Shown one piece after another: positions 1 through 52,229 of a DNA stretch of 64,000 bases. A model generated the notes under the pieces. It was given only the letters and a program-made list of their open reading frames with translations, was not told the origin of the DNA and did no database searches. Numbering within the stretch: the first letter of the stretch is position 1; every line of letters begins with the position of its first letter. This DNA is from Bryobacterales bacterium (GTDB taxonomy: Bacteria > Acidobacteriota > Terriglobia > Bryobacterales > Bryobacteraceae), in the NCBI GenBank assembly GCA_963710565.1, contig CAVQAN010000009.1:756965-820964 (forward strand), in the 5' to 3' direction. A program made the position numbers and the translations under genes.

Positions 1-2091
1 CCGCAATTCCTTGTCGTTGATGACCCGACGGTCCACCCCGGTTCAGCACGCTACGCTCGCGGCGATCTTCGCGGTTCCCGATGGCCCACGACCCCCGTAC
101 CAGTCTTCGCGAATTTGGCGTCAGCCCCCATCCTGGACGGCGACGCGCAAGCTGCCCAACACGCCATGGTCAACGGGTGGAACATAGGTAATAAGAAGTA
201 CTATATCGAGACGTCACAAGACCCTCGGCAGACAGGCTACGGCATCTTCTTCGATTACACCCAAGGCGGGGATTATCAACCGCTTCAATCGGATGGGAAG
301 ATGTGTGGTGCGCAGCAATTACTCGGATCCGTGCAGATTCTCGTCGGGCCCTGGGGAGCAAACGCGACCGCGTTAGGTGCCGGTAGCGAGCACGAGCTCG
401 GTCACGGCCTGGCTAAAATCCACACGCCCCCAAACGTGGTGAACGGCGTGGAGGACGACACGTTGATTATGAATGCGAATCTTTTTGAAACTGTCTCCAA
501 TACGTGGGAGGCGAACGGTCGGAGAGCGAACCGGGTGCAGCGCTACGCGAATCAAATACTCTATGACATGCCGCTCAAAGTAGGCACGGTGGACGGCGTT
601 GACTACTACACGAACGCGCTCTCCTACTCGAACCCGGGCGAGGACACCCCCGTCCTCGACCCGACGTACAACCCCATGCTCTGCACGTACAGGCTCACCC
701 CCATCAGGGATACGTTTCCTGCCCCCGGGGGGACGGGCACCATTCGCATTGACACGGCCAGCTATTGCCAGTGGAGCGCTTCCGACCCGGTTACGTGGAC
801 GACGCCAACCGGCGCGACCTCCGGCAAGGGACCGGGCACGTTCACATTCCAAGTCGCGCCGAACACCGGAGCCACGCGTACCGGCACGCTCACCATCGCC
901 GGCACCACCATCAAGATTGTAGAACTCGGAGACTCCGTAACAGGCGGCCTCTACTTCGTCCCCGTCACGCCGTGCCGCGTCGAGGACACACGCAACGGCA
1001 ACGGCCCCTACGGCGGACCGGCTCTCCAAGGCGGCGACACGCGCATCTTCAACATCCCGCAAAGCGGCTGTAACATTCCTTTTACAGCGAAAGCTTACTC
1101 GTTCAATGCGACGATCGTGCCGGTGAGCCAAGGGCCGGTCGGCTTCGTCACCCTATGGCCTGCCGGCCAAGCTCAACCCAACGCCTCCACGTTGAACTCG
1201 TGGGATGGCCGTGTGGTTGCGAACGCGGCCATCATACAAGCAGGTACCAACGGGGAGGTGAGCGTCTATTCCAGCCACCCGACGGATGTCATCCTTGATG
1301 TCAACGGATACTTTGACACGCTGAGCACGACGACCGCCTACTCGTTTTACCCGGTGACTCCGTGTCGCGTCGCGGACACACGTTGGCCGGTCGGAATTTT
1401 TGGTGGACCAGCCTTGGCTGATGACGAGACCCGGGACTTCCCCATCGCGAACAGCTCCTGCGGGATCCCGCCGGAAGCGACGGCCGGCTCGTTCAATTTC
1501 ACGGTCGTGCCGTCCGGGTACTTGGGGTATCTCAGCACGTGGCCGACTGGGGAGGACCAGCCAAACGTCTCTACGTTGAACTCGTGGGATGGCCGTGTGG
1601 TTGCGAACGCGGGGATTGTGCCCATGGGCACGAACGGCATTAATATGTTCGCCACAAACCAGACGCACGCGATCATCGACACGAACGGCTACTTCGCTCT
1701 CCCCGGGAGTCCGGGCGCGCTCCTCTTCCATCCGATGACGCCGTGCCGCGTCGAGGATACGCGGAACCCCGATGGTCCCTTTGGCGGGCCGATCCTGAAA
1801 GGCGGGACGGCGCGCTCGTTCGCGATCCCGGCGAGTGGGTGCAACGTGCCTAACACGGCCGCGGCGTACATCTTCAATCTGACGCTGGCACCAACACAGT
1901 ACCTGGGCTACGCGACCGTTGCGCCGACGGGGCCCCCGCTTCCCTACGTCTCCACCGATAACTCGTGGACTGGGACCGTCGTGGCGAACATGGCGATTGT
2001 CCCTGCGGGGATCAATGGATCCATCGATCTATATGTGACGCAGGATACGCACGCGATCCTCGACATCACCGGCTACTTCGCGCTCGAGTGA
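1..2091 (+). CDS. Secreted multidomain protein, paralog A of the C-terminal tri-module family: zincin-like metallopeptidase region + BACON-like Ig domain + 3 tandem ~115-aa PCRVxDTR modules. The reading frame is open to nt 1, so the 5' end may lie upstream
   Basis: ORF 115..2091 (alternative start; frame has no stop back to nt 1). HELGHGL zinc-binding-like motif. Segment 'TIRIDTASYCQWSASDPVTWTTPTGATSGKGPGTFTFQVAPNTGATRTGTLTIAGTTIKIVEL' fits the BACON pattern. Three repeats (FVPVTPCRVEDTR… / [13 protein letters not shown]… / FHPMTPCRVEDTR…), each ending …NGYF; the last runs to the stop. Confidence 0.6.
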   Translation, partial: PQFLVVDDPTVHPGSARYARGDLRGSRWPTTPVPVFANLASAPILDGDAQAAQHAMVNGWNIGNKKYYIETSQDPRQTGYGIFFDYTQGGDYQPLQSDGKMCGAQQLLGSVQILVGPWGANATALGAGSEHELGHGLAKIHTPPNVVNGVEDDTLIMNANLFETVSNTWEANGRRANRVQRYANQILYDMPLKVGTVDGVDYYTNALSYSNPGEDTPVLDPTYNPMLCTYRLTPIRDTFPAPGGTGTIRIDTASYCQWSASDPVTWTTPTGATSGKGPGTFTFQVAPNTGATRTGTLTIAGTTIKIVELGDSVTGGLYFVPVTPCRVEDTRNGNGPYGGPALQGGDTRIFNIPQSGCNIPFTAKAYSFNATIVPVSQGPVGFVTLWPAGQAQPNASTLNSWDGRVVANAAIIQAGTNGEVSVYSSHPTDVILDVNGYFDTLSTTTAYSFYPVTPCRVADTRWPVGIFGGPALADDETRDFPIANSSCGIPPEATAGSFNFTVVPSGYLGYLSTWPTGEDQPNVSTLNSWDGRVVANAGIVPMGTNGINMFATNQTHAIIDTNGYFALPGSPGALLFHPMTPCRVEDTRNPDGPFGGPILKGGTARSFAIPASGCNVPNTAAAYIFNLTLAPTQYLGYATVAPTGPPLPYVSTDNSWTGTVVANMAIVPAGINGSIDLYVTQDTHAILDITGYFALE

Positions 2092-3556: not shown

Positions 3557-3689
3557 ACCGTGTGGGCCTTCATCCGCGTTCATCTGCGTTCATCTGCGGC
3601 CAGTTTCAGTTCGCGTTTTCTCAACCCACGGGGACGCCGCAGCGGGCGCGAAGCGGAGACGGCGCTTGGCCCGGGCATCGATTCCCCAG

Positions 3690-3775: not shown

Positions 3776-3782
3776 ATGTATC

Positions 3783-34957: not shown

Positions 34958-35510
34958 CTATGGCGCGAAATACCCGTTGATGTCCAGAATCACGTGCGTC
35001 GGGTCCGTCACGTAGACGCTGATCGCCCCGCTCGTCCCCGCCGGCACGATCGCCGCGTTCGCCACCACGCTGCCGTCCCACGAGTTCAACGTCGAAACGT
35101 TCGGCTGCGACGACCCTGTTGCCCACGCCGAGAGATACGAGAGCCGCGCATCGGGCACCACCGTCAGGTTCAGCGAGTACGCCGCCGCCGTCGACGGAAT
35201 GTTGCAGGCGCTGGCCGGGATCGCAAATGAGCGCGCGGTGGCCGCAGCCATCTCCGGCCCTCCGAACGGACCCGCGGGGTTGCGCGTGTCCGCCACGCGG
35301 CACGGCGTCACCGGATAGAAGTTCAGCGCCCCCGGACTCCCCGGCGCCGCGAAGTAGCCGTTGCCGTCCAGAATCACGTCCGTCGCGTTCGAAACGTACA
35401 CGGAGATCGACTCATTCGTCCCTGCCGGGACGATCGCGGCGTTCGCCACCACCTTGCCCGTCCAGGAGTTCAGCGTCGACGCCACCGGCGGCGCCTGCCC
35501 CGTCGGCCAG
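34958..35510. repeat. ~0.55-kb near-identical DNA repeat: 3' end of paralog B, duplicated in paralog C (offset 3945)
   Basis: Off-frame ORFs 35119..35550 and 39064..39495 translate almost identically. ORF 34217..35230 ends like 38939.. begins. Read directly: >95% identity over the first ~550 nt, lower beyond. Confidence 0.75.
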
Positions 35511-38500
35511 GTGGTCAGGTAGCCCAAGTACCCGGCGGGTACCACTGTGACATTCAGCGAGTACGCCCGCGCCGTGGCCGGAAGGCCGCAGGAACTCAGG
35601 GGAATGGGAAAGTCCCGGGTCTGGCCACCGTACATAGACGGCCCGCCAAACTGGCCCGTGGGGCCCCGCGTGTCGGCGATGCGGCAGGGCGTGGCGGGAT
35701 AGAACGCATACGAGATCACGGCGCTGGGGGAATCGAAGTAGCCGTTGATGTCCAGGATCACGTCGGTCTGATCAGTGACATACACGCTAACCGCCCCACC
35801 CAAACCGGCCGGCACGATGGCCGCATTGGCCACCACGATCCCGCCCCAGGAGTTCAGAGTCGAGACCAGGGGTTGGACCTGGCCCCGCGGCCACAGCGTC
35901 AAGTAGACCAGCGGCCCGGCGGGCACCACGGTCACGTTCAACGAATACGCCTGGGCCGTCGCCGGAATGCCGCATCCGCTTTGCGGTACGCCGAAGGAAC
36001 GCCAGGAACCGGCTGTCATGGCCGGTCCGCCGAACGGCCCAACCGCGCCCCGCGTGTCCGCCACGCGGCAAGGGACTACGGGTATGAACTGCAGGCCCGC
36101 CGGCGCAGTGCCGGTCGTGAAGGACCAGGTCCCGGAATTGCCGAAACCGAAGCTGTTCAGGGCCACAATCCGCCAGTAGTAGGTGGTGTTCGGGCTGAGC
36201 GTGCCCGGGGCGTAGCTGGTGCCCGTCGTGTTGGCCACCCAGAGCGGCGTAGACGCGGTTCCAAAGTAGACGTCGTAGGACATGGCCCCACCCGAGGGGT
36301 TCCACAGCAAAGCTGAGGCGACCGGAACGCCGGTAGCTCCGTTCGGGGGAGAGACCAGAACCGGTGCTTCGGGAGCGGGTATTTCCGTCGTGAACGACCA
36401 TGTGGCCGAACTCGCCGAGTCGGTTCCGTTTCTGGCGACGACCTGCCAGCGGTAGGTAGTGCCCGCCGTCAGCCCCGCGACGCTGCAACTCGTTCCCATC
36501 GCGGTACAGGCCAAGACCAGCGGGGTCGTAGTGCCCAGGTAAACGTCGTAGGAAGCGGCTCCGGGCGAAGCGTTCCAACTCAGGGTTGGCGCCAAGGAGA
36601 CGCCCGTAGCGCCGTCGGCAGGCGCAGTGAGAACCGGCGCGGCAAGGGCGGGATAGGCTGACAGCTTGGTCACGAAGGCGTCGTATTCTCCGCCGCCGTT
36701 TGTCGTCTGAAACGCCGACTGAGTGGGAAAGTCGGTCGATTGGGTGTGCCCCGTAACGTAGGCCGCGCCCGGTCCGTCCAGCGCGATCCCTAGACCCGCG
36801 TCATCGCCGTTCCCACCCAGATACGTGCAATAGATCACCGCGTTGCCCGCCGGCGTCAGTTCCGCCACGAAAGCGTCCCAAGCGCCTCCCTGGAATGTCG
36901 CCTGGTACGCAGACTGGGTGGGGAAGTTGCTCGAAGCGGTTTGTCCCGCAATGTAGGCCGAGCCCATCCCGTCTACCGCGATCCCGTTGGCCTCATCATG
37001 GTCACTTCCACCCAGGTACGTGGAGTACAGGCAGCGCGTTACCCGACGGCGTCAGTTTCGTCACGAAGGCGTCCCAGGTTCCTCCCTGGAGTGTCGCCTG
37101 GTACGGCGACTGGGTGGGGAAGTTGGTGGAGGTGGTCTCCCCCGCCACGTAGGCCGAGCCCGCACCGTCCACCGCGATCGCCGAAGGCCTGATCGCTCCC
37201 ATTCCCGCCCAGGTAAGTGGAGTAGGACCAGCGCGTTGCCCGCCGGCGTCAGTTTCGTCACGAAAGCGTCGCAATCGCCTCCCTGGAATGTCGCCTGGTA
37301 CGCCGACTGGGTGGGGAAATTGGTCGAATAGGTAAACCCAGTGACGTAGGCCGAGCCCGCCGCGTCCACCGCGATCCCGTTGCCCTCATCATCCTTGCTT
37401 CCACCCAGGTACGTGGAGTAGACCAGCGCGTTGCCCGCCGGCGTCAGTTTCGTCACGAAAGCGTCGGCATATCCGCCTTGGTATGTCGCCTGGTACGGCG
37501 ACTGGGTGGGGAAGTTGGTCGAATCGGTGCGCCCCGTGACGTAGGCCGAGCCCGCCCGTCCACCGCGATCCCCTGGGCACATGTCGTCGTCGCTTCCACC
37601 CAGGTAGGTGGAGTAGACCAGCGCGTTGCCCGCCGGCGTCAGTTTCGTCACGAAAGCGTCGTAAGCCTCCTCCCTGGTTTGTCGCCTGGTACGGCGACTG
37701 GGTGGGGAAGTTGGTCGAAGAGGTGTACCCCGTGACGTAGGCCGAGCCCGCCCCGTCCACCGCGATCCCGTCGCCCTGGTCACTGCCGCTTCCACCCAGG
37801 TAGGTGGAGTAGACCAGCGCGTTGCCCGCCGGCGTCAGTTTCGTCACGAAAGCCGTGCTGCCGCTCCCCGTATGTCGCCTGGTACGGCGACTGGGTGGGG
37901 AAGTTGGTCGAGCCGGTGCTCCCCGTGACGTAGGCCGAGCCCGCCCCGTCCACCGCGATCCCGTAGCCCAGCTCATAGTCGCTGCCACCCAGGTAGGTGG
38001 AGTAGACCAGCACCACCGGGTCGATGCGCAACTCCCGCTTCCGGTCGTACTTCGCCAGTTCGAAGCTCACCCGGTTGCGCGCCACGATCGCGTACCGCGC
38101 CCCCACCTCCACCCGCTTCCCGCCGATCTCCTGATACACCCGCGGCTTCTGCTGCCGCACCTCGCCCAGCGCCGTCCGCAGCACCAGGTCGCCGCCCGCC
38201 TCCACTCCCAGCGACTCCACTCCCTCGTAGGCCACCTGGATCTGCTTCGCATCCGCTCCCGGCGCCACCACGAAGTCGTACTCCAACTGCCGCTGGTTGC
38301 CGTACCACACCAGGTCGATGCCTGGGTACACGCCCTCGTACTGGATGCGCGCGTAATGCGGCACGTCCGTGCGCCACTTCTTCGGGTCGTTGCCGATGAA
38401 ATAGTTGCTGATGCCAGGTAGCTTCTCCAACCCGATCACCTGCCGCGGCTGCCCCGCTCCCGCCAGCTTCATCCGCACCACTGCCTGCTCGACTTGGCTG

Positions 38501-38849
38501 CTTGCCGCCGCTCGTGCGGCAACGCCTTGGGATCCCGCCGCTCCCCCGGCTGAGCAGCATGCACCGCTTCGGTATCGGTGAAGAAGGCCGTCATCCCGCC
38601 GCCGCGTGCCAGAAAACGCACCCGTGCATCGGTTTGCCCCAGGTTGGGCTCGAACGCTAGCGGCAGCTTCCCGTAACCCTCGGCCACCTGAGGCCTGCCG
38701 GCAGCGTCCCCGGCCAGGAACCGCGGTCCCGCGGGCAGCCTGGGCAGCGATAACAGCTTGCCCGTGGCCACCGTAAACTGAGCGCTCGCGGCGCCCGACA
38801 GCGCCAGCAGAGTGCCGGCGGTCCTAGCAACCGATGACAGCCTGGCCAC
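34958..38849 (-). CDS. Paralog B of the tri-module family: signal peptide + Acidobacteria-type N-domain + SBBP beta-propeller repeats + 2 Fn3 + 3 C-terminal modules. At least 4 apparent frameshifts between ~37000 and ~38500
   Basis: N-terminus [24 protein letters not shown]…[13 protein letters not shown] (ORF 38469..38849). …[55 protein letters not shown]… (ORF 37780..38481). SBBP repeats ([47 protein letters not shown]) are spread over ORFs 37389..37988, 37061..37795, 37002..37274 and 34958..36967. The last ORF also holds Fn3 (…SWNA..GA.SYDVY.G…[10 protein letters not shown]) and three PCRVADTR modules. Confidence 0.7.
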
Positions 38850-38902: not shown

Positions 38903-39455
38903 TCATGGCGCGAAGTACCCGTTGATGTCCAGAATCACGTGCGTCGGGTCGGTCACGTAGACGCTGATCGCCCCGCTCGTCCCCGCCGGCACGATCGCCG
39001 CGTTCGCCACCACGCTGCCGTCCCACGAGTTCAACGTCGAAACGTTCGGCTGCGCCGACCCTGTTGCCCACGCCGAGAGATACGAGAGCCGCGCGTCGGG
39101 CACCACCGTCAGGTTCAGCGAGTACGCCGCCGCCGTCGACGGAATGTTGCAGGCGCTGGCCGGGATCGCAAAGGAGCGCGTGGTGGCCGCAGCCATCTCC
39201 GGCCCTCCGAACGGACCCGCGGGGTTGCGCGTGTCCGCCACCCGGCACGGTGTCACGGGATAGAACGTCAGCGCCCCCGTACTCCCCGGCGCCGCGAAGT
39301 AGCCGTTGCCGTCCAGAATCACGTCCGTCGGGTTCGAAACGTACACGGAGATCGACTCATTCGTCCCTGCCGGGACGATGGCGGCGTTCGCCACCACCTT
39401 GCCCGTCCAGGAGTTCAGCGTCGACGCCACCGGCGGCGCCTGTCCCGTCGGCCAC
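38903..39455. repeat. Second copy of the ~0.55-kb near-identical repeat (3' end of paralog C)
   Basis: See 34958..35510. Confidence 0.75.
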
Positions 39456-41470
39456 GTCGTCAGGTAGCCCAGATACCCCGCGGGCACCACCGTGACGTTC
39501 AGCGAGTAGGCGCTGGCCGTTGGCGGAAGACCGCAGGAACTGAGGGGAATCGGGAAGTCCCGGCTTTGGCCGGCCGACATGGCAGGTCCGCCAAAAGTGC
39601 CAACGGGCATCCGCGTGTCGGCGATGCGGCACGGCGTGGCGGGATAGAACGCATACGAGCTGGGGCCGGTGGAGGTGTCAAAGTAGCCGTTGATGTCGAG
39701 GATCACGTCGGTCGTATCGGGAACATAGACGCTCACCGCCCCGCCGGTCCCGGCCGGCACGATGGCCGCGTTGGCCACCACGATCCCGCCCCAGGAGTTC
39801 AGCGTGGAGACGTTGGCCTGCGCCTGCCCGGTGGGCCACAGCGTCAGGTAGTAGAGTGGCCCCTCGGGCACCACGGTCACGTTCAACGAATAGGCCTGCG
39901 CCGTTCCGGGAATGCCGCAGGGGCTCTGCGGAATCGCAAAGGAGCGAGTAGAGCCGGGCGTCATGGTGGGACCGCCGAACGGCCCAGGGGCGTTCCGTGT
40001 GTCCACCACGCGGCAAGGCGTCACGGGGACGAAGCGCAGAGCCGTCGCGCCTCCCCCTGGCTGGTTCGAGGCTTGGTTGACTGCAATCGTCAGGCCGCCG
40101 GCGGAGATCTGCGCCGAGCGCCAAGGGCCAGGGTTGGCGGCCACGTTGAGCGTGACGGTGGCCGAATCGGCGCCGCTGGCCGGACCCGCCAGAGTGACCC
40201 AATCCGGCAGGTTCGAGATGGCCCATGGGCAGCCGATGCCGGTGGCGATGGTGAGCGGATAGCTCCCCCCAGCCACTGCAGCCTGGATCGAGGTGGAAGA
40301 AACGGAGTACCTGCAGTTGGCGCCCGAAGGGGCTACGTCGTACACGCTGACGTAGGCCTGGGACTGTCTGGTTTCCTCCAGGGTCGCGGGATCGACGGTG
40401 TCGACGTCGTAGGAGACATAGACGCGCCCGTTGTGGAGGATAAGCCAGGGCCGCCCCGCCAGTGTGTTGTTCGCGAGGCTGTAGTTGGTCACCGCCACGT
40501 CGTCGATGAGATTCCAGTTAAGATCGAATGCGGCCAGGTGTACATTGAATGCCGGGGGGAGGTACTGGGGAGCGGGGCGCGTTTGGCTGTCGTCCAGGTA
40601 GGCGACGAAGAACCGGTCGCCGTCGAATGCCAGGCCCTCGGAAAACTCGCCGTACGGCCGCAACGTTTGCTTGCCAAGAAGGCGCCAACTCGTGTCGTAG
40701 TGCATCACGTCCACCTCGCCCAGGAACGCGCTGCCGGTAACCAAATGGTAGACCCCGTTGACGAAGATCATGGACGATCCGCAGATCTGCGGTGGGTTGT
40801 CCAGTATCATCCTGCCCTCCGTCACCAACGCGGGGGAGAAGAAGTAGTGGTAGGTCGCGGCTCCGGTGAAGAAATCAGGGGGCGTTCCCGAGGCGTTGTT
40901 GTTGTATTGCGAGCTGACGTCCAGTTGTCCGTTGACGAAGGCGACCATCGGATCGTTCTCGGCCTCTTGCGGATCCACGATGGAAAGGTAGATTTCGGAT
41001 TCGATCTGCCAGCTCACGGCGTCGAATTTCATGAGCTTCCAGCCATGGAAACCGGGGATTTCGGGCACGTAGTCGGGAGCCCAAGCGAAGTAGTAATCGT
41101 TCCCGACCATCACCGATCCCGAGTCGTTTGCCTCGAACCCGGCGGCGTGGTCCCGGACGAAGTAATCCGCTTGGCCGGTCGGATTCATGTCCAGGTCGTA
41201 TTCCTTATAGGCATACCCGGCTCTTTGATCGGCCGCGGAGGAGGGCGGCTTGGTGCCGAATGTCACCACCAGGCGATCCGTCGCGGGGACGTAGTTAACC
41301 CGCGCGAAACCGCCCGTTCCAAAGGTCCCATCCGGCGCCACCTGAACGGTGCGTACGAACTGAAACACTCCCGTTCCCGTGCCGGCAGTTTCGGCGTTCG
41401 CCGGGGCGCCGCCGACGGCGGCCGTTCCCGGTATGCAGACCAGCATCGCTACCGCTAGAACGCGTTTCAC
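38903..41470 (-). CDS. Paralog C of the tri-module family: signal peptide + ~400-aa unknown beta-rich (glycosidase/propeller-like?) domain + BACON-like domain + 3 C-terminal modules. Intact frame
   Basis: 855 aa, GTG start with AAGGAGG RBS. MKRVLAVAMLVCIPGTAAVGGAPANA. BACON-like CRYSVSSTSIQAAVAGGSYPLTIATGIGCPWAISNLPDWVTLAGPASGADSATVTLNVAANPGPWRSAQISAGGLTIAVNQ. Then LRFVPVTPCRVVDTR…/[13 protein letters not shown]…/[13 protein letters not shown]…INGYFAP-stop. Confidence 0.8.
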   Translation of the reverse strand: MKRVLAVAMLVCIPGTAAVGGAPANAETAGTGTGVFQFVRTVQVAPDGTFGTGGFARVNYVPATDRLVVTFGTKPPSSAADQRAGYAYKEYDLDMNPTGQADYFVRDHAAGFEANDSGSVMVGNDYYFAWAPDYVPEIPGFHGWKLMKFDAVSWQIESEIYLSIVDPQEAENDPMVAFVNGQLDVSSQYNNNASGTPPDFFTGAATYHYFFSPALVTEGRMILDNPPQICGSSMIFVNGVYHLVTGSAFLGEVDVMHYDTSWRLLGKQTLRPYGEFSEGLAFDGDRFFVAYLDDSQTRPAPQYLPPAFNVHLAAFDLNWNLIDDVAVTNYSLANNTLAGRPWLILHNGRVYVSYDVDTVDPATLEETRQSQAYVSVYDVAPSGANCRYSVSSTSIQAAVAGGSYPLTIATGIGCPWAISNLPDWVTLAGPASGADSATVTLNVAANPGPWRSAQISAGGLTIAVNQASNQPGGGATALRFVPVTPCRVVDTRNAPGPFGGPTMTPGSTRSFAIPQSPCGIPGTAQAYSLNVTVVPEGPLYYLTLWPTGQAQANVSTLNSWGGIVVANAAIVPAGTGGAVSVYVPDTTDVILDINGYFDTSTGPSSYAFYPATPCRIADTRMPVGTFGGPAMSAGQSRDFPIPLSSCGLPPTASAYSLNVTVVPAGYLGYLTTWPTGQAPPVASTLNSWTGKVVANAAIVPAGTNESISVYVSNPTDVILDGNGYFAAPGSTGALTFYPVTPCRVADTRNPAGPFGGPEMAAATTRSFAIPASACNIPSTAAAYSLNLTVVPDARLSYLSAWATGSAQPNVSTLNSWDGSVVANAAIVPAGTSGAISVYVTDPTHVILDINGYFAP

Positions 41471-41640: not shown

Positions 41641-43683
41641 ATGAAGCCTCTCCGGGCGAAACAGCCGGTGCAGCCGGACCCAGCCGGTGAACGGCTTGAA
41701 TCCTGGAAGGAGATCGCCCGGCACCTGAATCGCGACGTCCGAACCGTGCAGCGCTGGGAGCAGAGCAAGGATCTCCCGGTGCGGCGACTGCCCGGCGGCG
41801 ATATGGCGCGGGTCTACGCCCTGCGCTCGGAGTTGGACGCCTGGTGGAATAGCCGGGGAATCCACCTGACCCCGGGGGCGGAGGGCGCGGCGGTGGAGCC
41901 GGCAAGCGCGCCGCGCAGCCCGGCGCGGATTTGGGCGGGAGTGGCTGTGGGGCTGGCTGTGCTGGCGGCGCTGACGGTCTGGGGGCTGCACCGGAAGCCT
42001 GGCGTATCGGCGCCCCTCCGGGTCGTCCCGCTCACCAGCTTGGGCGGAGAGGTCGGTTACCCGTCGTTCTCGCCGGACGGCAAGCAGGTGGTCTTCGTCT
42101 GGAACGGAGAGAAACAGGACAACCACGACTTGTACGTCCGGCAAATCGGGGTGGGCGAACCATTGCGCCTCACCAGGGACCCGGCCATGGACTCCTGGCC
42201 CTCCTGGTCCCCCGATGGACGGCAGATCGCCTTCGTTCGCTGGCGAATCGGGCAGCCGAAGTTGGAGCTCCGGGTCATCCCGGCGCTGGGCGGAACGGAC
42301 CGGCTCCTGGCGGAACGTCCGGTCCCTGAGGTTTGGCCGGTTCCGGCGGCGAGCTGGACTCCGGATAGCCGGTGGCTGATCTGCGGTCTCCCCGGCGCCA
42401 CGACTCACACCTCGCTGGTCCTGCTATCGGTCGAGACCGGTGAACAGCGGCGCCTGACCTCGCCACCCGAGGGATGGGACGGGGACGATTCCCCCGTGCT
42501 CAGCCCGGATGGACGCCAGGTGGCGTTCATACGGCGGAACGGTGTCGAATCTGGCAATGTCTTTCTGCTTAACCTCAGGCGCGATTACAGCGCGCAAGGC
42601 GAGCCTCAACAGTTGACCCACGAGGCATGCTGCGCCGTGAATCCGCTTTGGACCGCCGACGGCAGCGAGATCCTGTACCTCACCAGCGACCAGGACATTT
42701 CGACGCTACACCGAATTCCGGCGCACCCGGGCGGGCAGCCCCGGATCGTGGATACCATCGGCGCCATGGGCAACCAGCTCGCGATCTCCCGGCAGGGCGA
42801 CAGACTGGTCTACGTCGGCGGCCAGACGGATTCCGACCTCTGGCGCGTCGAGCTTCCAAGGCACGGCGTTCCCGGCGCGACCCTCGCGGCGCGGCGGGTG
42901 CTCTCCTCCAGCCGCATGGAGGCCTTTCCGGACATTTCGCCGGACGGGAAGCGGGTGGCCTTCGGCTCGAACCGGTCGGGGACGTTCGAAGTCTGGCTGG
43001 CAGAGGCGGATGGCTCCGGCGCGGTGCAGGTGACTGCGCTGGGTGGCCCTCCCGCCCTGCTGCCGAGGTTGTCGCCGGACGGCAAACAGATCGCCTATAA
43101 CGCCAACCTGGATGGAAGCCGGGATGTCTACGTCGTCGGCGCCGAGGGTGGAGTTCCTCGCCGCCTGACGCGGGCCTCCGGGGGTAACATAGCGCCCACC
43201 TGGAGCCGGGACGGGAAGTGGGTTTACTTCGCCAGTGGCCGCAGCGGGAGCTTCCAATGCTGGAAGGCCCCGAGCGATGGGGGCGCCGCCACCCAGATCA
43301 CCAGGAACGGCTGTTTCGGTGGGTTCGAGTCCGTGGACGGTCGAAGCCTGTACTATGCGAAGGATTGGGGCCCAGCGCCGATCTGGCAGGTTCCCGCGGG
43401 CGGCGGGGAAGAGCGGCCCGTCGGTCCCGCGGTCGAGACTTTCCGGGTTCCATGGAACTTCGCAGTGACCGCGGGCGGGATCTACACCCCGGCGACCACG
43501 AATCCGCTGGCCGGCTTCGAGGTGAGGTTCTATTCGTTCGCCACCGGAGCCACCGAGATTCTGGGAAGAGTCGAGAAACCGTTTGGGCGCTCCATGTCGG
43601 TCTCTCCGGACGGCCGCTGGCTGCTCTTCCAGGACTACCCGGCGCGCCGCGGTGACCTGATGCTGGTGGAGAACTTCCGGTAG
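41641..43683 (+). CDS. Membrane-anchored transcriptional regulator: N-terminal HTH DNA-binding domain + single TM helix + periplasmic TolB-like (PD40/WD40-like) beta-propeller
   Basis: 680 aa. GERLESWKEIARHLNRDVRTVQRWEQSKDLPVRRL (Acidobacteria-type HTH). TM IWAGVAVGLAVLAALTVWGL. Repeated SPDGKQ/SPDGRQ/SWSPDG…(V/I)AF motifs typical of TolB/PD40 blades. Embedded inside the paralog cluster. Confidence 0.7.
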   Translation: MKPLRAKQPVQPDPAGERLESWKEIARHLNRDVRTVQRWEQSKDLPVRRLPGGDMARVYALRSELDAWWNSRGIHLTPGAEGAAVEPASAPRSPARIWAGVAVGLAVLAALTVWGLHRKPGVSAPLRVVPLTSLGGEVGYPSFSPDGKQVVFVWNGEKQDNHDLYVRQIGVGEPLRLTRDPAMDSWPSWSPDGRQIAFVRWRIGQPKLELRVIPALGGTDRLLAERPVPEVWPVPAASWTPDSRWLICGLPGATTHTSLVLLSVETGEQRRLTSPPEGWDGDDSPVLSPDGRQVAFIRRNGVESGNVFLLNLRRDYSAQGEPQQLTHEACCAVNPLWTADGSEILYLTSDQDISTLHRIPAHPGGQPRIVDTIGAMGNQLAISRQGDRLVYVGGQTDSDLWRVELPRHGVPGATLAARRVLSSSRMEAFPDISPDGKRVAFGSNRSGTFEVWLAEADGSGAVQVTALGGPPALLPRLSPDGKQIAYNANLDGSRDVYVVGAEGGVPRRLTRASGGNIAPTWSRDGKWVYFASGRSGSFQCWKAPSDGGAATQITRNGCFGGFESVDGRSLYYAKDWGPAPIWQVPAGGGEERPVGPAVETFRVPWNFAVTAGGIYTPATTNPLAGFEVRFYSFATGATEILGRVEKPFGRSMSVSPDGRWLLFQDYPARRGDLMLVENFR

Positions 43684-43870: not shown

Positions 43871-44886
43871 CTACGGCGCGAAATAGCCGTTGATATCGAG
43901 AATTACCTGCGTCGGGTCTGTCACGTAGACGCTGATCGCCCCGCTCGTCCCCGCCGGCACGATCGCCGCGTTCGCCACCACGCTCCCGTCCCACGAGTTC
44001 AACGTGGAGACGTTCGGCTGCGCCGACCCCGCCGCCCACGCCGAGAGGAACGAGAGCCGCGCGTCGGGCACCGCCGTCACGTTCACCGAATACGCCGCCG
44101 CCGTCGACGGAATGTTGCAGGCGCTGGCCGGAATGGCGAAAGAGCGCGTCGTGGCCGCCGCCATCTCCGGCCCTCCGAACGGGCCCGCGGGGTTGCGTGT
44201 GTCCGCCACGCGGCACGGCGTCACCGCGTAGAACGTCAGCGAGCCCGTACTGCCCGGCGGCGCGAAATAGCCGTTGCCGTCCAGAATCACGTCTGTCGGA
44301 TTCGAGACGTACACCGAGATCGACTCGTTGGTCCCCGCCGGGACGATCGCGGCGTTCGCCACCACCTTGCCCGTCCAGGAGTTCAGCGTCGACGCCACCG
44401 GCGGCGCCGATCCCGTCGGCCAAGTGGTCAAAAAGCCCAGATAGCCTGCCGGAACCACCGTGAAATTGAGCGAGTACGCGCTCGCCGTTGGCGGAAGACC
44501 GCAGGAACTGAGGGGGATCGGGAAGTCGCGGCTTTGGGCGGCCGACATCGTAGGTCCGCCGAACGTGCTCGCGGGCATCCGCGTGTCGGCGATGCGGCAC
44601 GGTGTGGCGGGATAGAACGCATACGAACTGGGGCCGGTGGAGGTGTCGAAGTAGCCGTTGATATCCAGGATCAGGTCGGTGGTATCGGGGACATAGACGC
44701 TCACGGCCCCGCCGCTACCGGCCGGAACGATGGCCGCGTTGGCCACCACGATCCCGCCCCAGGAGTTGAGCGTGGAGACGTTGGCCTGCGCCTGCCCGGT
44801 GGGCCACAGCGTCAGGTAATAGAGCGGACCCTCGGGCACCACCGTCACGTTCAACGAATAGGCCTGAGCCGTGTTCGGGAATGCCG
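43871..44886. repeat. ~1.0-kb near-identical (about 97%+) DNA repeat: 3' end of paralog D, duplicated in paralog F
   Basis: Constant offset of 12383 nt to 56254..57268. Identical off-frame ORFs on both strands (43730..45001 vs 56290..57303; 44004..44231 vs 56387..56614; 44197..44463 vs 56580..56846; 44428..44622 vs 56811..57005). Identity collapses abruptly at ~44886/57268. Confidence 0.8.
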
Positions 44887-47800
44887 CAGCCTCCTTGCGG
44901 AATCGCAAAGGATCGGGTGGAGTCCGCCGCAAGCGAGGGACTGCCGAACGGCCCGCCGGGGCCGCGCGTGTCCACCACGCGGCAGGGAGTTACCGGGATG
45001 AACCGGAGGCCTACCGCCGGCACGCCCGTCGTGAAGGACCACATCCCGGAACTGGCCGTCCCGCCGGCGTTCCGCGCCGCGACCTGCCAGTAGTAATTAT
45101 TGTTCGCGTTCAGCGTGCCCGGAGCGTAACTGGTGGCGGTCGTGTTCGTCACCCAAGGCGGCGCGGACGAAGCGCCGAAGTAAACGTCATACGACGTGGC
45201 CCCGGTTGAAGCGTTCCAGGCCAGGGTCGGCGCTGTCACCACGCCGATGGCTCCGTTCGACGGACCAGTCAGACCCGGCGCCGCGGGCGGGGCGACGATG
45301 TTGGTCGTAGCGCTGGCGCTGGTCGGCGCCGAGCCTCCCCCCGACAGACTTATCTGACTGGTCACCTGGGAAGGCGCGTCTGCCGCGACGTTCACCGTTA
45401 CGGTGATGGGCGGAAAGCTGGCCCCTGGCTGGAGCACATCGCTGCGGGTGCAGGTGTTACCCGAGCAGTTCCAGCCCGTGCCCGACATGGAGACCAGCGT
45501 CAGGCCGGTGGGGTCGGTCACCGTCACCGTGCCGTTGGTCGGTGCGGCGCCCGCGGCGTTGCTCACCACCACGGAGTAGGTCGCCCCCGTTTGTCCCGGT
45601 GTGAAGGCTTCGGGCTGCGTGACGCTGACACTCAAGAGTGAGCTCGTCCCCTGGGGCACCAGCAGCCGGATCACACTGCTCGAGGGGTCCGCGATGTAGA
45701 TCCTGCCGGCGGCGTCCACCGCGAGGCCATAAGGAGAATCAAGCTGGGCGCTGGTGGCCGGGCCGCCATCGCCTGAGTAGCCTCTCGTTCCGCTCCCCGC
45801 GACCGTCGTGATTGTGCCATCGGTCGCCACCTTGCGGATTCTGCTATAGCAGGGATCCGCGATGTAGAGATTGCCGGCCGCATCCACCCCCACACCATCG
45901 GGGCAGATCTGCGCGGCGGTGGCCGGACCTCCGTCGCCTGGAGACGCCGAGCCTCCGCCCGCCACGGTAGTGATGACGCCTGTCGCCGCCGCCACCATGC
46001 GAATCCGATAGTTGTAGAGGTCCGCGATGTAGAGATTGCCGGCGGCATCGAGCGCCACGCCGGTCGGGGAGAATAGCTGGGCGCTGGTAGCCAGACCGCC
46101 GTCGCCCAGCCCCGACGTGCCACCCCCGGCCACCGTCGTGATGATGCCGGTCGCCGCCGCCACCATGCGGATCCGGTTGCCGAACTGCTCCGCAATGTAA
46201 AGGTTGCCGGCTGCATCCACCGCCAAGGCCGAAGGGAAATCGAGCTGGGCCGCGGTGGCCGGGCCGCCATCCCCCAATCCAGACGTGCCACCTCCGGCCA
46301 CGGTTGTGATGGTCCCATTGACGGATACCTTGCGGACCAACTGCCCGTCATCGAAGTAGACGTTGCCCGCGGCATCCAGCGCCACGCTGTAAGGGTCACC
46401 GGCTCCCGCCACGGTCGTGATGGTGCCATCAGGCGCCGCTTTGCGGATGCGGACGTTCTTACTGTCGGCTATATAGAGGTTCCCGCGGGCGTCCACCGCC
46501 ACACCGTAAGGGTTGCTGAGGCCGGCGCTGGTGGCCGGGCCGCCGTCGCCGAATCCCGCGCTGCCGTTCCCCGCCAAGGTCGTAACGGTGCCATTGGCCG
46601 CCACCCTGCGGATCACGTTGGCATTCGTGTCCACTGCGTATAGATTCCCGGCGCCGTCCACCGCCACGCCCAAGGCTGAGGTCCACACGGTCGTGATGAT
46701 GCCATTGGGTGCCACCTTGCGGATATAGCCGTCTGAGATGTAGAGGTTTCCGGCGCCGTCCAGGGCCAGGTCCAAAGGTTGACCGATTCCGGCCGGCCCC
46801 GCTATCGTCGTGATGATGCCCGTCGTCGCCGCCACCTTGCGGACCCGGTTGTTGACGGAATCCGCGATGTAGAGATTGCCGGCGGTGTCCACCACCACGC
46901 CTGAAGGAACGGCGAGTTCCGCACTCGTGGCCGGTCCCCCGTCCCCTGAGTAGCCAAAGGTTCCGGTCCCCGCTACCGTTGTAACGGCGCCATTGGCCGC
47001 CACCTTGCGGATCGCGTTGTCGGGGAGATCCGCGATATAGACGTTGCCCTCGACGTCCACCGCGACGCCCCAAGGCTCGTAGGTTCCCTGTCCCGCCAGC
47101 GTCGTGATGGTGCCATCCGGCGCCACCTTGCGAATCGCCGAGTTCCAGTAGTCCGCGATGTAGACGTTGCCGGCGGCGTCCACGGCCACCCCGCGAGGGT
47201 TATCCAGTCGAGCGTCAATGGCCGGGCCGCCGTCGCCCGAGTAGCCCCCGACTGCTGAGCCCGCCACGCGGGCGAGAGCTCCCGAGCCGTCCACTTTGAA
47301 TACCCAGTTTCCGGAGCTGAAGTATACGTTGCCTTGCCCGTCCACGGCGACGGCCTGCGGAGCGGAAAGCGGCGCGCTCGCGGCCGGGACCCCCGAGGGC
47401 GGAACCCCGCCGCCCGCCACTGTCGTGATCAGATACTGCACGGCGACCGGCGGCGCGCCCGTCGTGAACGACCAGGTCGCGGAAACGGCAGAACCGGCGG
47501 CATTATGCGCCGCGATCTGCCAGTAGTACGTAGTGCCCGCGTTCAGCGTGCCGGGAGCGTACCTGGTCGCCGCCGTGCTCGTCACCAGGGGCGGCGGGGA
47601 TGAGGCGCCAAAGTAGACGTCGTAGGACGCAGCCCCGGTTGAGGCGTTCCAGACCAGAGTCGGCGCTAACACAACGCCCCCAGCTCCGTTCCCTGGCGAA
47701 GCTAGCGCAGGCGTCGCGGGCGGCGCGGCGATGTTAGTCGTAGCGCTGGCGCCGGTCGGTACCGAGCCTCCCCCCGACAACGTGATCTGACTGATCACCT

Positions 47801-50800
47801 GGGAGGGAGCATCCGCGGCGACGTTCACGGTCACGGTAATGGGTGGAAAGCTGGAGCCGGGCTGGAGCACGTCGCTGCGCGTGCAGGTGTTGCCCGAGCA
47901 GTTCCAGCCCGTGCCCGACATGGAAACCAGCGTCAAACCGGTGGGTACGATCTCGCTCACCGTCACCGTGCCGCCGGTCGGTCCGGCGCCCGCGGCGTTG
48001 CTTACCGCCACTGAGTAGGTGGCTCCGGTCTGCCCCGGTGTGAAGGCAGCGGGCTGGGTTACACTGACACTCAGCAGCGAACTTGTCCCCTGCGGCACGA
48101 GCAACCGGATCACATTGTTGTCGGTATCCGCGATGTAGATCCTGCCGGCGGCATCCACCGCGACGCCATAAGGGTAATTGAGTTGGGCAACGGTGGCCGA
48201 GCCGCCGTCGCCTGAGTACCCCGCGGTTCCGGTCCCCGCTACCGTCGTGATCGTCCCATCGATCGCAACCTTGCGGATCCGATGGTTGCAAGTGTCCGCG
48301 ACGTAGAGGCTGCCTGCGCCGTCCGCCGCTACGCCCGAAGGGGAGTTGAGTTGCGCGCTGATTGCCGGACCGCCATCTCCCGCGTAGCCCCCGGTTCCGT
48401 TCCCCGCGACGGTCGTTATCGTGCCATTGGGCGCCACTTCGCGAACCCGGTTGTTGCCACAGTCCGCGATGAACAGGTTGCCGGCAAGATCCACGGCCAC
48501 GCCTGCAGGCGCGTTGAGCTGCGCGCCGGTGGCCGGGCCGCCGTCGCCCGAGAATCCCGCGGTTCCGTTCCCCGCCACGGTCGTGATCGTCCCATCGACC
48601 GCAACCTTGCGGACCCGGTAGTTGTAGGTATCCGCGATGTAGAGATTGCCGGCGGCATCCACGGCCACGCCCTGCGGCATATTGAGTTCGGCGCTGGTGG
48701 CCGGGCCGCCGTCGCCCGAGAAGTCATAGTCGCCGGTCCCCGCCACGGTCGTGATGGTGCCATTGGCCACTTTTCGAATCACGTTGTCGAGCTCGTCAGC
48801 GATGTAGAGGTTGCCGGCCGCGTCCGTCGCCACGCCGGCTGGGAGGTCGATCCCGGCGCTGGTGGCCGGGCCGCCGTCGCCAGAGTACCCCCAGTTCACG
48901 CCACCCGCTGCCGTCGTAATGGTGCCATCGGTCGCCACCCTGCGGACCACGTTGTCGACGGTGTCCGCGATATAGATGTCGCCAGCGGCATCCACCGCCG
49001 CGCCTTCAGGCCCGTAGAGCTGCGCGCCGGTGGCTGGACCTCCGTCGCCCGAGTATTCCCTTCCGCTCCCCGCCGCCGTCGTAATGGTGCTATGGACATC
49101 CACCTTTCGAATCACGTAGTCGGCGCCATCCGAGATGTAGAGGTTGCCGGCGGTATCTACTGCAATGCCATCCGGGTGGAGTTCGGCGCTGGTGGCCGGG
49201 CCGCCGTCACCCGAGTAGCCCCGCTTGCCGTTCCCCGCCACCGTAGTGATGATGCCATTCGCCGCGACCTTGCGAACCCTGTCTGCGCCCCTTTCCGCTA
49301 TGTAGAGGTTGCCGGCGGCGTCCAGCGCCACGCTGTCAGGGCTGGCGAGTTCGGCGCTTGTAGCCGGGCCGCCGTCGCCTGAGTGGCAGCACTTCCCATC
49401 GCCCGCCACCGTCGTGATGATGCCATGGACATCCACCTTGCGGACCGCCTCGTTGTTGCTGTCCGCAATGTAGAGATTTCCGGCGGCATCCACTGCCACG
49501 CCCAAAGGGTTCTTGAGCTGGGCGCTGGTGGCCAAGCCCCCGTCGCCCGAATAGCCATAGCCGCCGTTCCCCGCCACAGTCGCGATCGAGCCATTGGCCG
49601 CCACCTTGCGGATCACGTTGTTGCCGTAGTCCACGATGTAGAGGTCGCCCGCGCGATCCGCCGCGACGCCCCAGGGTCGGGACAGTTGGGCGCTGGTGGC
49701 CGAGCTGCCGTCGCCAGAATAGCCCTGGGTTCCGTTCCCCGCCACGGTCGTGATGGTGCCGTTGGGGGCCACCATGCGGATCACGCTGTTCTCGGTATCG
49801 GCAATGTAGAGGTTGCCGGCGCCATCGACCGCCACGCCTATAGGGTCCCCGAGTTGGGCGCTGGTGGCCGGGCCGCCGTCGCCTGAATAGCCGCCGCCGG
49901 TTGAACCTGCCACGCGCGTGAGAACTCCCCCACTGTCAACCCTGAACACAGAGTTGGCCGCAGCGAAATAGAAGTTCCCCTGCCCGTCCGCCGCGACGCC
50001 CCACGGCTGAAACGACGCGCTCACGGCTGGCACCCCCGAGGGCGGCAGCCCACCGCCCGCCACCGTCGTGATCAGATACTGCACGGCTGCGACTGGCGCA
50101 CCCGTGGTGAACGACCACGTTGCGGAACTGGCCGTCCCCGCTACGTTACGGGCCACAACCTGCCAGTAGTAGGTGGTACCGGAATTCAAGATGCCCGGAG
50201 TGTAAGTGGTCGCCGTCGTGTTAGAGGCCATGGTTGGCGGAGATGAGGCGCCAAAGTACAGGTCATAGGACGTCGCCAGGCTCGCAGTGTTCCACACCAG
50301 AGCCGGCGCGAGCGCCACGCCGGTGGCTCCGTCCGCTGGGGAGCTCAAGACTGGCGCTACCGGAGCCGGTACGAGCGTCGTAAACGACCAGGTATCGGAA
50401 CTCGCCGTGCCCGCGCTGTCTCTGGCCACAACCTGCCAGTAGTAGGTCGTGCCCGCGGACAGCGTCCCAGGACTATAACTCGTCCCCGTGGTGTTGGTGA
50501 CGAAAGACGGAGGAGTTGCGGTACCCACATGAACGTCGTAGGAAGTGGCCCCGGCAGCAGCGCTCCAACTCAATGAAGGCGTACGGGGGACGCCGGTAGC
50601 GCGGTTGGCGGGCGCCGTGAGGATTGGCGCGGAATTGCCAGTCTCGGTCCAGGTCCCGGGCGCCCCCGACACGGAGGCCTCCTGACATGGAACACTGCCG
50701 CCGCACCAGATCTGGGACGTGTCGGCGCCGGTGGAGACGAATCCGTATTCGCTAAACAATAGCGGGTATGGACAAACCACACCGTACACGCCAGAGCAAG

Positions 50801-51917
50801 CGCCGGCGGGGTATTGCGCGCCGAAATCCCAACCAATGATGCCGCCAGACGCGTCTGTGGTGACACCGAGACTGCCGACATCCCCGCCGCCTGAGGAGTA
50901 ATCTGTCACTTGGTCGGACACCGCCCAACTGACGGGGACAACGGGCTGCTGCAGAAGGTTGGCCGGCAGAGGTTTAGCGAACGTGAACGAGGCAGTGATG
51001 AAGTCCGCATTCGTGAGAGGGTAGGAATTGATGCCGGAGTTTTCGCTATTGACGTCGTTGAAGTGGCTGCCGGTGTACGTGTAAATCACGGCGCCTGCCT
51101 CTGCGACCAGCGTCGTAAACGACCAGGTATCGGAACTCGCCGTGCCCGCGCTGTTTCTGGCCGCAACCTGCCAGTAGTAGGTCGTGCCCGCGGACAGCGT
51201 CCCAGGACTATAACTCGTCCCCGTCGTGTTGGTGACGAAAGACGGAGGAGTCGCGGTGCCCACATAAACGTCGTAGGAAGTAGCCCCGGTAGCAGCGCTC
51301 CAACTCAACGAAAGCGCAAGGGGGACGCCAGTAGCGCCGTTGGCGGGCGCCGTGAGGAACGGCGCGGAATTGCCGGTCTCAGTCCAGGTCCCGGGCGCCC
51401 CCGACACGGAGGCCTCCTGACATGGAACACTGCCGCCGCACCAGATCTGGGACGAGTCGGTGCCGGTGGAGACGAATCCGTATTCGCTAAACAATAGCGG
51501 GTATGGACAAACCACACCGTACGCGCCAGAGCATGCGCCGGCGGGGTATTGCGCGCCGAAATCCCAACCAATGATGCCGCCAGACGCGTCGGTGGTGACA
51601 TCGAGACTGCCGATGTCCCCGCCGCCTGAGGAGTAAGTTGTCACTTGGTCGGACACCGCCCAACTGACGGGGACAACGGGCTGCTGCAGAAGGTTGGCCG
51701 GCAGAGGTTTAGCAAACGTGAACGAGGCAGTGATGAAGTCCGCATTCGTGAGAGGGTAGTGGTTGATGCCGGGGTTGCCGTTGTTGAAGTCGTTGAAGTG
51801 GTTGCCGGTGTACGCGTAAGTTACGGCGCCGGCCTTTGCGGCTGGTGAGGCGGCTAGCGACACCAGCGCGCCAAGAACGAGCGAGAGAGCTGTGCGGGAA
51901 GTGCGTGTGGACATCAT
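43871..51917 (-). CDS. Paralog D of the tri-module family (giant, >2650 aa): signal peptide + duplicated N-terminal domain + Fn3s + ~40 NHL repeats + DUF11-like + Fn3 + ~20 NHL + DUF11-like + Fn3 + 3 C-terminal modules. Apparent 1-bp frameshift near 44870
   Basis: ORF 44715..51953 (2412 aa). NHL consensus repeated (ITTVAGNGT.GYSGDGGPATSAQL..P.GVAVDAAGNLYIAD..NNRIRKV). DUF11-like YSVAVSNAAGAGPTGGTVTVSEIVPTGLTLVSMSGTGWNCSGNTCTRSDVLQPGSSFPPITVTVNV. Frame breaks inside module 1 (…GCGIPEHG…). ORF 43871..44932 continues …[12 protein letters not shown]… through modules 2-3 to INGYFAP-stop. Confidence 0.75.
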
Positions 51918-51940
51918 GCTCCTGTCGCTCCGAGAGTGAA
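50480..51940. repeat. Internal ~732-bp tandem duplication (2 units) encoding the N-terminal domain + Fn3 of paralog D
   Basis: Off-frame ORFs 50570..50881 and 51305..51601 translate near-identically at a 732-nt offset. In-frame protein shows AVTYAYTGNHFNDFNNGNPGINHYPLTNADFITASFTFAKPLPANLLQQP… repeated as AVIYTYTGSHFNDVNSENSGINSYPLTNADFITASFTFAKPLPANLLQQP…. Confidence 0.6.
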
Positions 51941-52229
51941 ATGGGACTTCCATTTTGGCTCCCGGCTTCGAGTCACTTTATCACAAGCCGCCCATCTTGA
52001 GTTCCCATCGCCCCTTGGAAACCCCGCCAATGACTGGCGGGATTCCCATAGCTCCGACGGCGGTTTGCTTGTTTGGAAGACGCGGAGACCAGGCCGCTCC
52101 GGCGGTCGGGCTGTCGCTCTCCCGCCGCCAGCCAAGCAGGAGCAGGTCAGGTAGCAAAAGACCCGGAAAGGAGGCTCGCCGCGAACCGCACGATATCGAA
52201 GCGCGTAGCGGATCGTGGTCGGCTATCCC

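Follow-up and report, generated by a model that had tools for sequence, protein, structure and literature searches.

A fixed three-module cassette at the ends of diverse secreted proteins in Bryobacterales and actinobacteria, with a predicted compact fold and a possible role in binding or anchoring

Is a run of three similar modules at the end of a secreted protein one unit, or a tandem repeat whose copy number is three by chance? The question is raised by gene C (38903..41470, minus strand), an uninterrupted open reading frame (ORF) of 855 amino acids (aa) that ends in three homologous tandem modules. It lies in a 64,000-nucleotide stretch of the Bryobacterales contig CAVQAN010000009.1, which we call the window. 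An earlier note on this DNA held that the triplet is one structural unit of three non-equivalent subdomains and not a variable-copy repeat. The unity of the triplet is borne out by its copy number, by a predicted structure and by covariation between modules. Functional non-equivalence of the three positions is only partly supported. On balance, we favor reading the triplet as a fixed three-module, pseudo-trimeric cassette that serves in binding or anchoring through a probable glycan ligand.

The gene C triplet begins at the motif LRFVPVTPCR and runs for 378 aa (aa 478-855, window 38906-40039). It was first put at ~345 aa, with an end coordinate of 39950 that drops the first ~30 residues of module 1, which begins at 40039. 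Module 1 (aa 478-598, 39677..40039, minus strand like all features of gene C) extends from LRFVPVTPCR to INGYFD and is modeled as an eight-stranded β-sandwich with cysteines at positions 9 and 41. Linker 1 (TSTGPSS, 39656..39676) leads to module 2 (aa 606-726, 39293..39655), which ends in GNGYFA, and linker 2 (APGSTGA, 39272..39292) leads to module 3 (aa 734-854, 38909..39271), which ends in INGYFA. One Pro codon and the stop follow (38903-38908). The module cores are 121 aa and the linkers 7 aa, giving a period of 126-128 aa instead of the modules of ~113-118 aa described before. The three motif strings that the earlier note quoted, one for each position, are found in the modules. A tblastn search with module 1 locates six triplets, the expected 18 modules in 6 genes, in the window (genes A-F). 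The designation of these genes as paralogs does not hold over their whole length, because the cassette is the only part common to all six; their cargo domains differ, with four cargo types among the six genes.

The number three is maintained far outside the window. A search with the gene C triplet yields at least 6,984 relatives, and modules were counted in the best 120. Three modules, ending 0-3 residues before the C-terminus, are present in 117/120; the other three are two truncated proteins and one with four modules (P0001). The closest relatives of gene C come from Bryobacterales metagenome-assembled genomes (MAGs) and share at most 83% identity across the full triplet, and one truncated relative shares 93% identity over 77% of it. 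The exact product of gene C has no record in the contig collection. A single-module profile searched against 1.84 billion representatives gives 29,494 matches, 6,272 of them at E ≤ 1e-30. Among the best 150 of the 29,494, all 148 new proteins have exactly three modules, placed at the C-terminus in 143, at the N-terminus in 4 and before a 14-aa tail in 1. Apparent fourth modules in seven representatives ('4 stretches') were rejected as split matches. A variable repeat would place higher copy numbers at the top of a profile ranking, and the best 150 never exceed three, which argues against such a repeat. We also counted arrays independently of reading frame in 79 sources (1.42 Mb of loci, Bryobacterales MAGs), leaving aside arrays at contig ends. 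Of the complete arrays, 95/97 have three modules, and two single-module genes in genome loci were rejected as true singletons, being truncated remnants. Overall, three modules occur in >97% of about 500 arrays from two phyla.

The placement of the triplet is nearly as constant as its size. In 78 of 90 clean triplets the end lies no more than 4 residues from the stop, and in 72 of the 90 it lies one residue before it. Among the 12/90 that are not C-terminal, 11 stand directly after the signal peptide and 1 (L072) has a broken reading frame. The 11 N-terminal triplets show the order signal peptide, triplet, and then linkers rich in Pro and Thr and other domains. The cargo, in turn, is highly diverse: 45 Pfam families are seen in 46 sampled cassette proteins, including propellers (NHL, FG-GAP, SBBP), Ig-like repeats, proteases, glycosidases, lectins and RHS toxins. 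Glycosidase partners belong to GH16 and GH113, and further partner sequences, judged by eye, may be GH3-like and GH30-like. Two contigs binned as 'Chloroflexia' and 'Candidatus Doudnabacteria' (L027, CAWADT010000023.1; L037, CAVYGQ010000002.1) carry triplets 82% identical to those of the window. Both stem from a sample that also gave a Bryobacterales MAG (MFD03726) and are therefore probably mis-binned Bryobacterales contigs.

Triplets are also present in actinobacteria. In plasmid records, tblastn detects the complete triplet in Streptomyces, Arthrobacter, Paenarthrobacter and Curtobacterium, with identities of 25-35%. Five annotated actinobacterial proteins have exactly three modules in 5/5 cases, at the C-terminus of hypothetical, PKD and LamG proteins and at the N-terminus of cutinase-family and RHS proteins. 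The Streptomyces triplet in turn has at least 3,557 matches. Of these, 120 are listed, and in 120/120 there are three modules, the last of which ends 1-2 residues short of the stop; their names say no more than 'hypothetical' or 'PKD domain-containing'. When modules of both phyla are placed in one tree, those of Bryobacterales all fall together, apart from every actinobacterial module. Within Streptomyces, modules do group by position, with much greater divergence (22-52% identity), module 3 being consistently the most divergent and carrying an insertion. The idea of an ancient positional identity shared across phyla was dropped, as position-specific hidden Markov models (HMMs) from Bryobacterales do not discriminate actinobacterial modules. 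With three modules in both phyla and no shared position identity, the number three is conserved more deeply than the identity of the positions. Residues R10, D13, T14, R15, N81, N90, D115, G118 and Y119 are kept in both phyla, as are a few Pro, Gly, Ala and Val residues. The cysteine pair is limited to Bryobacterales-type modules.

A small number of relatives have other module counts. Secreted one-module proteins, in which the module precedes unrelated C-terminal sequence, are encoded on two phage-like IMG/VR contigs (L080, 2249-2911; L079, 2444-3514). The L080 protein, P0269, is present on 45 contigs, and neighboring L080 ORFs resemble an ERF-type annealing protein and a VRR-NUC nuclease by reading of their translations. 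Such phage proteins could be homotrimeric versions of the cassette. Five complete two-module proteins (P0333, P0336, P0346, P0348 and P0358) consist of a signal peptide, a ~30-aa linker, two modules and the stop, with no cargo. Two of the two-module genes are confirmed on contigs (L086, 137-1057; L087, 1226-2143), and both of these adjoin polysaccharide-synthesis genes. P0358 adjoins genes for UDP-glucose dehydrogenase, Wzy_C and asparagine synthase, and P0346 adjoins genes for a PPC-domain protein and asparagine synthase. Four modules were seen in one protein only, P0001 (630 aa, modules at 107-629). They share 75-90% identity, with 90% between modules 3 and 4, and module 4 carries a small deletion, so that the fourth module looks like a recent extra duplication. 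The earlier note had raised the matter of homologs carrying 1, 2 or >3 copies interchangeably. Such relatives exist, but they are rare and architecturally distinct and the copy numbers are not interchangeable; they qualify the reading of the triplet as one unit and do not overturn it.

Each position within the triplet has its own identity in the close family. Modules of one gene share 54-73% identity, with a median of 64% (66-73% in gene C), which is higher than the 40-55% first estimated. Position-matched modules are 75-100% identical among genes B-F and 60-69% identical between A and the others; the original figure of 85-100% thus holds in part for B-F and fails for A. Neighbor-joining trees group modules by position and not by gene, as predicted. 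The three position clades receive 100/99/100% bootstrap support for genes B-F and 73/93/56% with A included, while by-gene clades receive 0%. Across about 90 diverged Bryobacterales-type arrays, 269/270 modules have their best match in another array at the same position. The family-wide median identity is 74% for the same position and 66% for different positions, about 8 points apart.

Some of the similarity within the window is probably of a different kind. The D cassette (43908..44833, minus strand) is identical base for base to the F cassette (56291-57216) over 926 nucleotides (nt). This tract has sharp borders, identity falls on both sides and the cargo differs (NHL vs FG-GAP/DUF11). Cassettes B and C are 97% identical in the last 520 nt but only 74-84% in the first 600 nt. 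Either recent gene conversion in register or a collapse of repeats during assembly would explain both cases, and part of the 85-100% figure for the window is due to one or the other. In addition, any triplication older than the spread of the genes would give grouping by position, so the grouping alone does not show functional non-equivalence. Internally near-identical triplets exist as well (modules 88-93% identical in P0262 and 81-84% in P0209). P0262, P0209 and P0030 have modules 81-93% identical to each other, yet exactly three modules each, and were either recently homogenized or re-triplicated. The description of 'three non-equivalent subdomains' is therefore sound for position identity in the close family, but this identity is not shared with the actinobacterial triplets.

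Structure prediction and coevolution analysis, two checks proposed in the earlier note, both address the packing of the modules. AlphaFold2, run on the 378-aa triplet with a 34-sequence alignment, gives a model with eight strands per module, a mean predicted local distance difference test (pLDDT) score of 94.7 and a predicted template modeling (pTM) score of 0.91. A pTM of this size for three domains implies a fixed mutual arrangement, i.e. a predicted rigid packing of the three modules. The triplet model superposes on the ~120-aa tip domain of Bd2133 from Bdellovibrio bacteriovorus (PDB entries 8OK3/8OND), the structurally aligned residues being 15% identical. Neither 8OK3 nor 8OND is among the matches when all PDB sequences are searched with a profile at E ≤ 10; that search gives chance-level matches only. 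Lower structural matches are generic β-sandwiches (CBM35/36/6, discoidin domains, viral jelly rolls), and a single-chain C1q trimer also appears among them, with an alignment of 193 residues. The triplet model does not superpose on the C1q/TNF jelly-roll fold and trimer packing. Foldseek searches of PDB and BFVD with the whole chain give weak matches only (TM score ≤0.27), including picornavirus polyproteins and phage tail proteins, and these low-scoring matches were rejected as an uninformative guide to module packing.

Covariation links all three modules. In a mean-field direct coupling analysis of 331 triplets (effective number of sequences 208), 18/20 of the top inter-module couplings connect the same position of two modules, while 0.17 are expected. 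The coupled sites include 83, 63, 23, 64, 113 and 87. At position 83 the three modules show the triads FWF, WWW, YYY, FFF, PPP and LLL, and the homotypic classes arose in many separate clusters. Gene conversion among the modules of one gene was rejected as the main cause, since within-array identity of the homotypic-triad classes (64-72%) is not raised over the overall 65%. There is also a directional coupling, between position 86 of module k and position 84 of module k+1, which is seen in each of the three cyclic pairs, module 3 to module 1 among them. Its values are 2.03, 1.05 and 1.27, and the minimum is greater than the maximum of 500 permutations (0.85). Within a module, positions of the first and last strands couple at i+j of about 121-127, which places the module termini next to each other; together with 7-residue linkers this argues for side-by-side packing and not for a rod. 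Positions 63 and 83 are coupled within a module too, suggesting that the covarying positions form one patch. Taken together, the pTM, the length of the linkers, the closest fold and the covariation point indirectly to a closed pseudo-threefold ring. We consider it likely that the triplet is one compact pseudo-trimeric unit.

The arrangement that we propose is as follows. Each module would be a β-sandwich of ~121 residues and eight strands, in which the antiparallel first and last strands bring the termini together. Bryobacterales-type modules would be held by a probable Cys9-Cys41 disulfide. The seven-residue linkers would arrange the modules next to one another about a pseudo-threefold axis, producing a single-chain pseudo-trimer, and the patch at positions 61-64 and 82-88 of each module would meet its counterparts at or near this axis. 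The cassette may thus be a fused counterpart of a homotrimeric β-sandwich tip like that of the Bd2133 adhesive fiber. It would act as a portable terminal unit, placed at the very C-terminus or immediately behind the signal peptide. Its ligand would probably be a cell-surface or extracellular polysaccharide, by which diverse secreted cargo is held on the surface.

Two groups of known systems are close to this proposal. The Bd2133 tip, the end of a 'mosaic adhesive trimeric' fiber, was described by its authors as a previously uncharacterized β-sandwich; its trimer forms around strand G989-W999, and ions lie on the three-fold axis (PMC10769870). Like a cassette module it has ~120 aa, and like the cassette in its proposed role it forms the end of an adhesive, surface-exposed protein. 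The two have no detectable sequence similarity, and the Bd2133 homotrimer is built from three chains and carried on a long β-helical fiber, whereas the cassette is one chain attached to non-fiber cargo. The second group comprises the SLH and CWB2 domains, which are triplicate at the N- or C-terminus of large families of surface proteins and lose anchoring when any one repeat is lost (PMC4973711). SLH folds as a pseudo-trimer, the same is proposed for CWB2, and the SLH triplet binds cell-wall polysaccharide non-covalently (PMC4973711). In Clostridioides difficile, CWB2 is found in 29 paralogous surface proteins with varied functional domains and binds the surface polysaccharide PSII; all three repeats are needed, they are not interchangeable and there are conserved differences between repeat positions (PMC4973711).

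The layout of the cassette is that of the SLH/CWB2 class, with three tandem repeats at the N- or C-terminus of a large family with varied domains. SLH shares with it the three tandem repeats and the terminal position on a wide range of secreted or surface proteins, but consists of ~55-aa helical motifs, unrelated in sequence and fold to ~121-aa β-sandwiches. CWB2 shares the position-specific differences between repeats, the pattern first noted in the window, but is unrelated in sequence and comes from Firmicutes instead of Acidobacteriota and Actinomycetota. Its fold also differs from that predicted for the cassette. Single-chain C1q/TNF trimers (4DOU, 5KCA) and triple jelly-roll viral proteins (4IND) place three β-sandwiches of one chain about a pseudo-threefold axis; 4DOU and 5KCA are engineered fusions, while the cassette is natural and ancient. 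Triplicate pseudo-trimer terminal modules are thus already known as a principle, as is the fiber-tip-type fold. None of the libraries that we searched holds the module itself. Scans of Pfam, NCBIfam and PHROGs with the triplet and with its actinobacterial, phage and two-module relatives give nothing covering the module. The Pfam scan of gene C at E ≤ 1 returns BACON only and thus no SLH (PF00395) match; the scans of gene C and the five actinobacterial proteins give no CWB2 (PF04122) match. CBM sequence families of the CBM6/35/36 type do not match the cassette either. In the libraries searched, the module is covered by no curated family, solved structure or source annotation. A fixed triplet that folds as one unit, sits at either terminus and is joined to varied secreted cargo repeats the SLH/CWB2 pattern, which favors a binding or anchoring unit. 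By this analogy the cassette may bind or anchor to a glycan, a proposition for which we put the chances a little short of even. The one indirect hint of a polysaccharide ligand is the location of two-module genes next to those for Wzy_C, UDP-glucose dehydrogenase and asparagine synthase.

Several other explanations have to be weighed. If the modules were additive 'beads on a string', three would be incidental, and relatives with one (phage contigs), two and four modules (P0001) would speak for this. The counts leave almost no room for this: three modules are found in 95/97, 117/120, 148/148 and 125/125 arrays, more than three are never found among the best scorers of 1.84 billion representatives, and the pTM and the covariation, module 3 with module 1 included, speak for one unit. 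An additive variable repeat is essentially excluded. A much stronger contender concerns the positions and not the number. The positional pattern could be purely historical, the outcome of an ancient triplication, spread of whole cassettes and in-register conversion, with the positions functionally equivalent and only the number three mattering. This opposes the notion of non-equivalent subdomains and is compatible with a pseudo-trimer. The separate clustering of Bryobacterales and actinobacterial modules, the failure of position-specific HMMs across phyla, the natural triplets with 81-93% identical modules, the D/F and B/C matches and the small excess of same-position identity all fit it. It accounts less easily for the retention of position identity in 269/270 modules of diverged arrays and for the consistently divergent Streptomyces module 3 with its insertion. 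In addition, the first and last modules have different neighbors (cargo or a free end), a possible real asymmetry, and swapping CWB2 repeats abolishes function (PMC4973711). We give the historical account nearly even chances.

Two further alternatives accept the unit and change its purpose. The same pseudo-trimer could be a substrate-targeting carbohydrate-binding module, directing enzymes or adhesins to a polymer in the environment, such as cell walls of plants or microbes or the organic matter of soil, and not to the surface of the producer. Some partners are indeed glycosidases (GH16 and GH113, with GH3-like and GH30-like ones by sequence reading), and there is a GH5 cellulase gene in the window. 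Most of the cargo, however, is not carbohydrate-active (NHL, FG-GAP and SBBP propellers, Ig-like repeats, proteases, RHS toxins), Pfam gives no CBM family match, and dozens of cargo types on one invariant terminal unit are the hallmark of SLH/CWB2-like anchoring; we regard targeting as plausible, at roughly one chance in four. Alternatively, an export or attachment machinery could read the cassette as a secretion or sorting signal, like the C-terminal domain of the type IX secretion system or PEP-CTERM. Very diverse secreted cargo and an extreme C-terminal position in about 87-97% of cases, ending one residue before the stop, would suit such a signal. It would not be expected after a signal peptide at the N-terminus (11/90 arrays, 4/148 representatives, 2/5 actinobacterial proteins), in both diderm Acidobacteria and monoderm Actinobacteria, or in cargo-free stand-alone two-module proteins. 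With 378 aa the cassette also far exceeds known sorting tags, and no NCBIfam sorting-domain model matched it. A sorting role is accordingly very improbable.

The pseudo-trimeric anchoring cassette that we prefer has its own difficulties. The threefold ring geometry is drawn only indirectly, from pTM, covariation, linker length and the nearest fold. No solved whole-chain match exceeds a TM score of 0.27, so the arrangement is not that of C1q/TNF trimers. The same-position covariation could instead reflect three equivalent ligand sites that change together. Complete two-module proteins and the four-module P0001 do not fit a closed trimer unless they oligomerize. The binding role is proposed by analogy, without a sequence link to any characterized binding domain. 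Finally, Acidobacteria are diderm, so surface display needs passage across the outer membrane, and we found no mechanism by which the cassette would make this passage.

The remainder of gene C illustrates the attachment of the cassette to its cargo. The protein order is signal peptide, cargo without known family, BACON-like domain, three-module cassette and stop. The signal-peptide-like N-terminus (VKRVLAVAMLVCIPGTAAVGGAPANA, 41393..41470) was judged from the translation. The cargo region of ~355 aa (40331..41392), examined by Pfam, NCBIfam and PHROG scans and by BLAST, has no recognized family; it has no match in the three libraries, and nothing related to the first ~380 aa of the protein occurs in the proteins and loci that were fetched. 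A BACON-like Ig-type domain (40061..40324, Pfam and BLAST) adjoins the cassette on its upstream side. Residues 416-466 match Pfam BACON (PF13004) with E 3.4e-4 and 21 bits, where the gathering cut-off is 25 bits, and by BLAST residues ~383-470 resemble domains immediately preceding the triplet in many other loci and proteins. Such a domain, often in two copies, is common just upstream of the cassette (in the window at 40061-40324, and in L007, L009, L018, L034, L035, L049, L065 and L069 [about 9480-10000]). A clear BACON domain is present in 9/46 sampled cassette proteins. Its recurrence suggests a preferred spacer or part of a larger recurrent unit.

The other cassettes of the window are attached to different proteins. 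The triplet of gene A (949..2082, plus strand; gene 115..2091) is the most divergent of the window, and the cargo includes a BACON domain (26 bits in Pfam). The remaining triplets are on the minus strand. That of gene B (34964-36094) follows DUF7948, SBBP repeats and fn3 in several frames, to ~38849, and that of gene C (38909-40039) follows the BACON-type cargo. Gene D (triplet 43877-45008) has fn3/Ig domains and NHL repeats, to 51953. Gene E (52236-53369) has an NHL-repeat propeller to 56100 in another frame, and gene F (56260-57390) has FG-GAP repeats and DUF11 to 60502, again in another frame. The N-terminal signals are of the ordinary Sec type in genes B, C, D and E and of the lipoprotein type in gene F (MKHTRLRKSTRLLVVAMALVLTGC, 60340-60502), and no recognizable signal peptide is seen at the start of gene A. 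Gene C was thought to be the only large member without frameshifts. Its ORF is indeed uninterrupted, but gene A is also unbroken. At least one frame change is needed in 4/6 cassette genes (B, 34958-38849; D, 43871-51953; E, 52230-56100; F, 56254-60502); in module 1 of gene D, one extra base near 44880 shifts the frame (CCCGAACACGG vs CCCGGA-ACGG in F). These changes may be sequencing errors or pseudogenization, and many of the related MAGs may be long-read assemblies, judged by their names.

Between genes C and D, at 41641-43683 (plus strand), a helix-turn-helix domain is fused to PD40 (TolB-like) β-propeller repeats, and this gene is possibly a regulator. The GH5 cellulase-family gene (3492-4820, plus strand) is located ~1.4 kb downstream of gene A. 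Other neighbors in the window are housekeeping or unrelated genes, such as those for prolyl-tRNA synthetase, an SPFH-domain protein and a DUF362 protein.

The modules make up a very large family. The profile search finds 29,494 clusters at 50% identity, and there are thousands of 90% clusters in each of the two phyla, for which the sources say 'hypothetical' or name other domains. Recognizing the cassette as one unit would improve the annotation of a considerable part of the secreted proteins of Bryobacterales and of many Streptomyces proteins. Its 1-, 2- and 3-module forms offer a tractable case of an oligomeric assembly becoming fused into one chain. Bryobacterales are abundant in soil, and to our knowledge no surface-display system of this kind is known in the diderm phylum Acidobacteria. 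If the cassette is an anchoring or binding device, it would define such a system there and provide a natural single-chain trimer scaffold. We tentatively extend this to a bolder proposal, to which we give about one chance in three. The cassette may be a third class of triplicate pseudo-trimer surface anchor beside SLH and CWB2, derived from three fused fiber-tip-type β-sandwiches. In abundant soil Acidobacteria (Bryobacterales) and in Actinomycetota it would fasten a large, diverse set of secreted proteins to one specific glycan of the envelope or exopolysaccharide, and the one-module phage versions would be homotrimers that recognize the same glycan. If this is true, the cassette marks the surface proteome of largely uncultured soil bacteria and points to a phage receptor.

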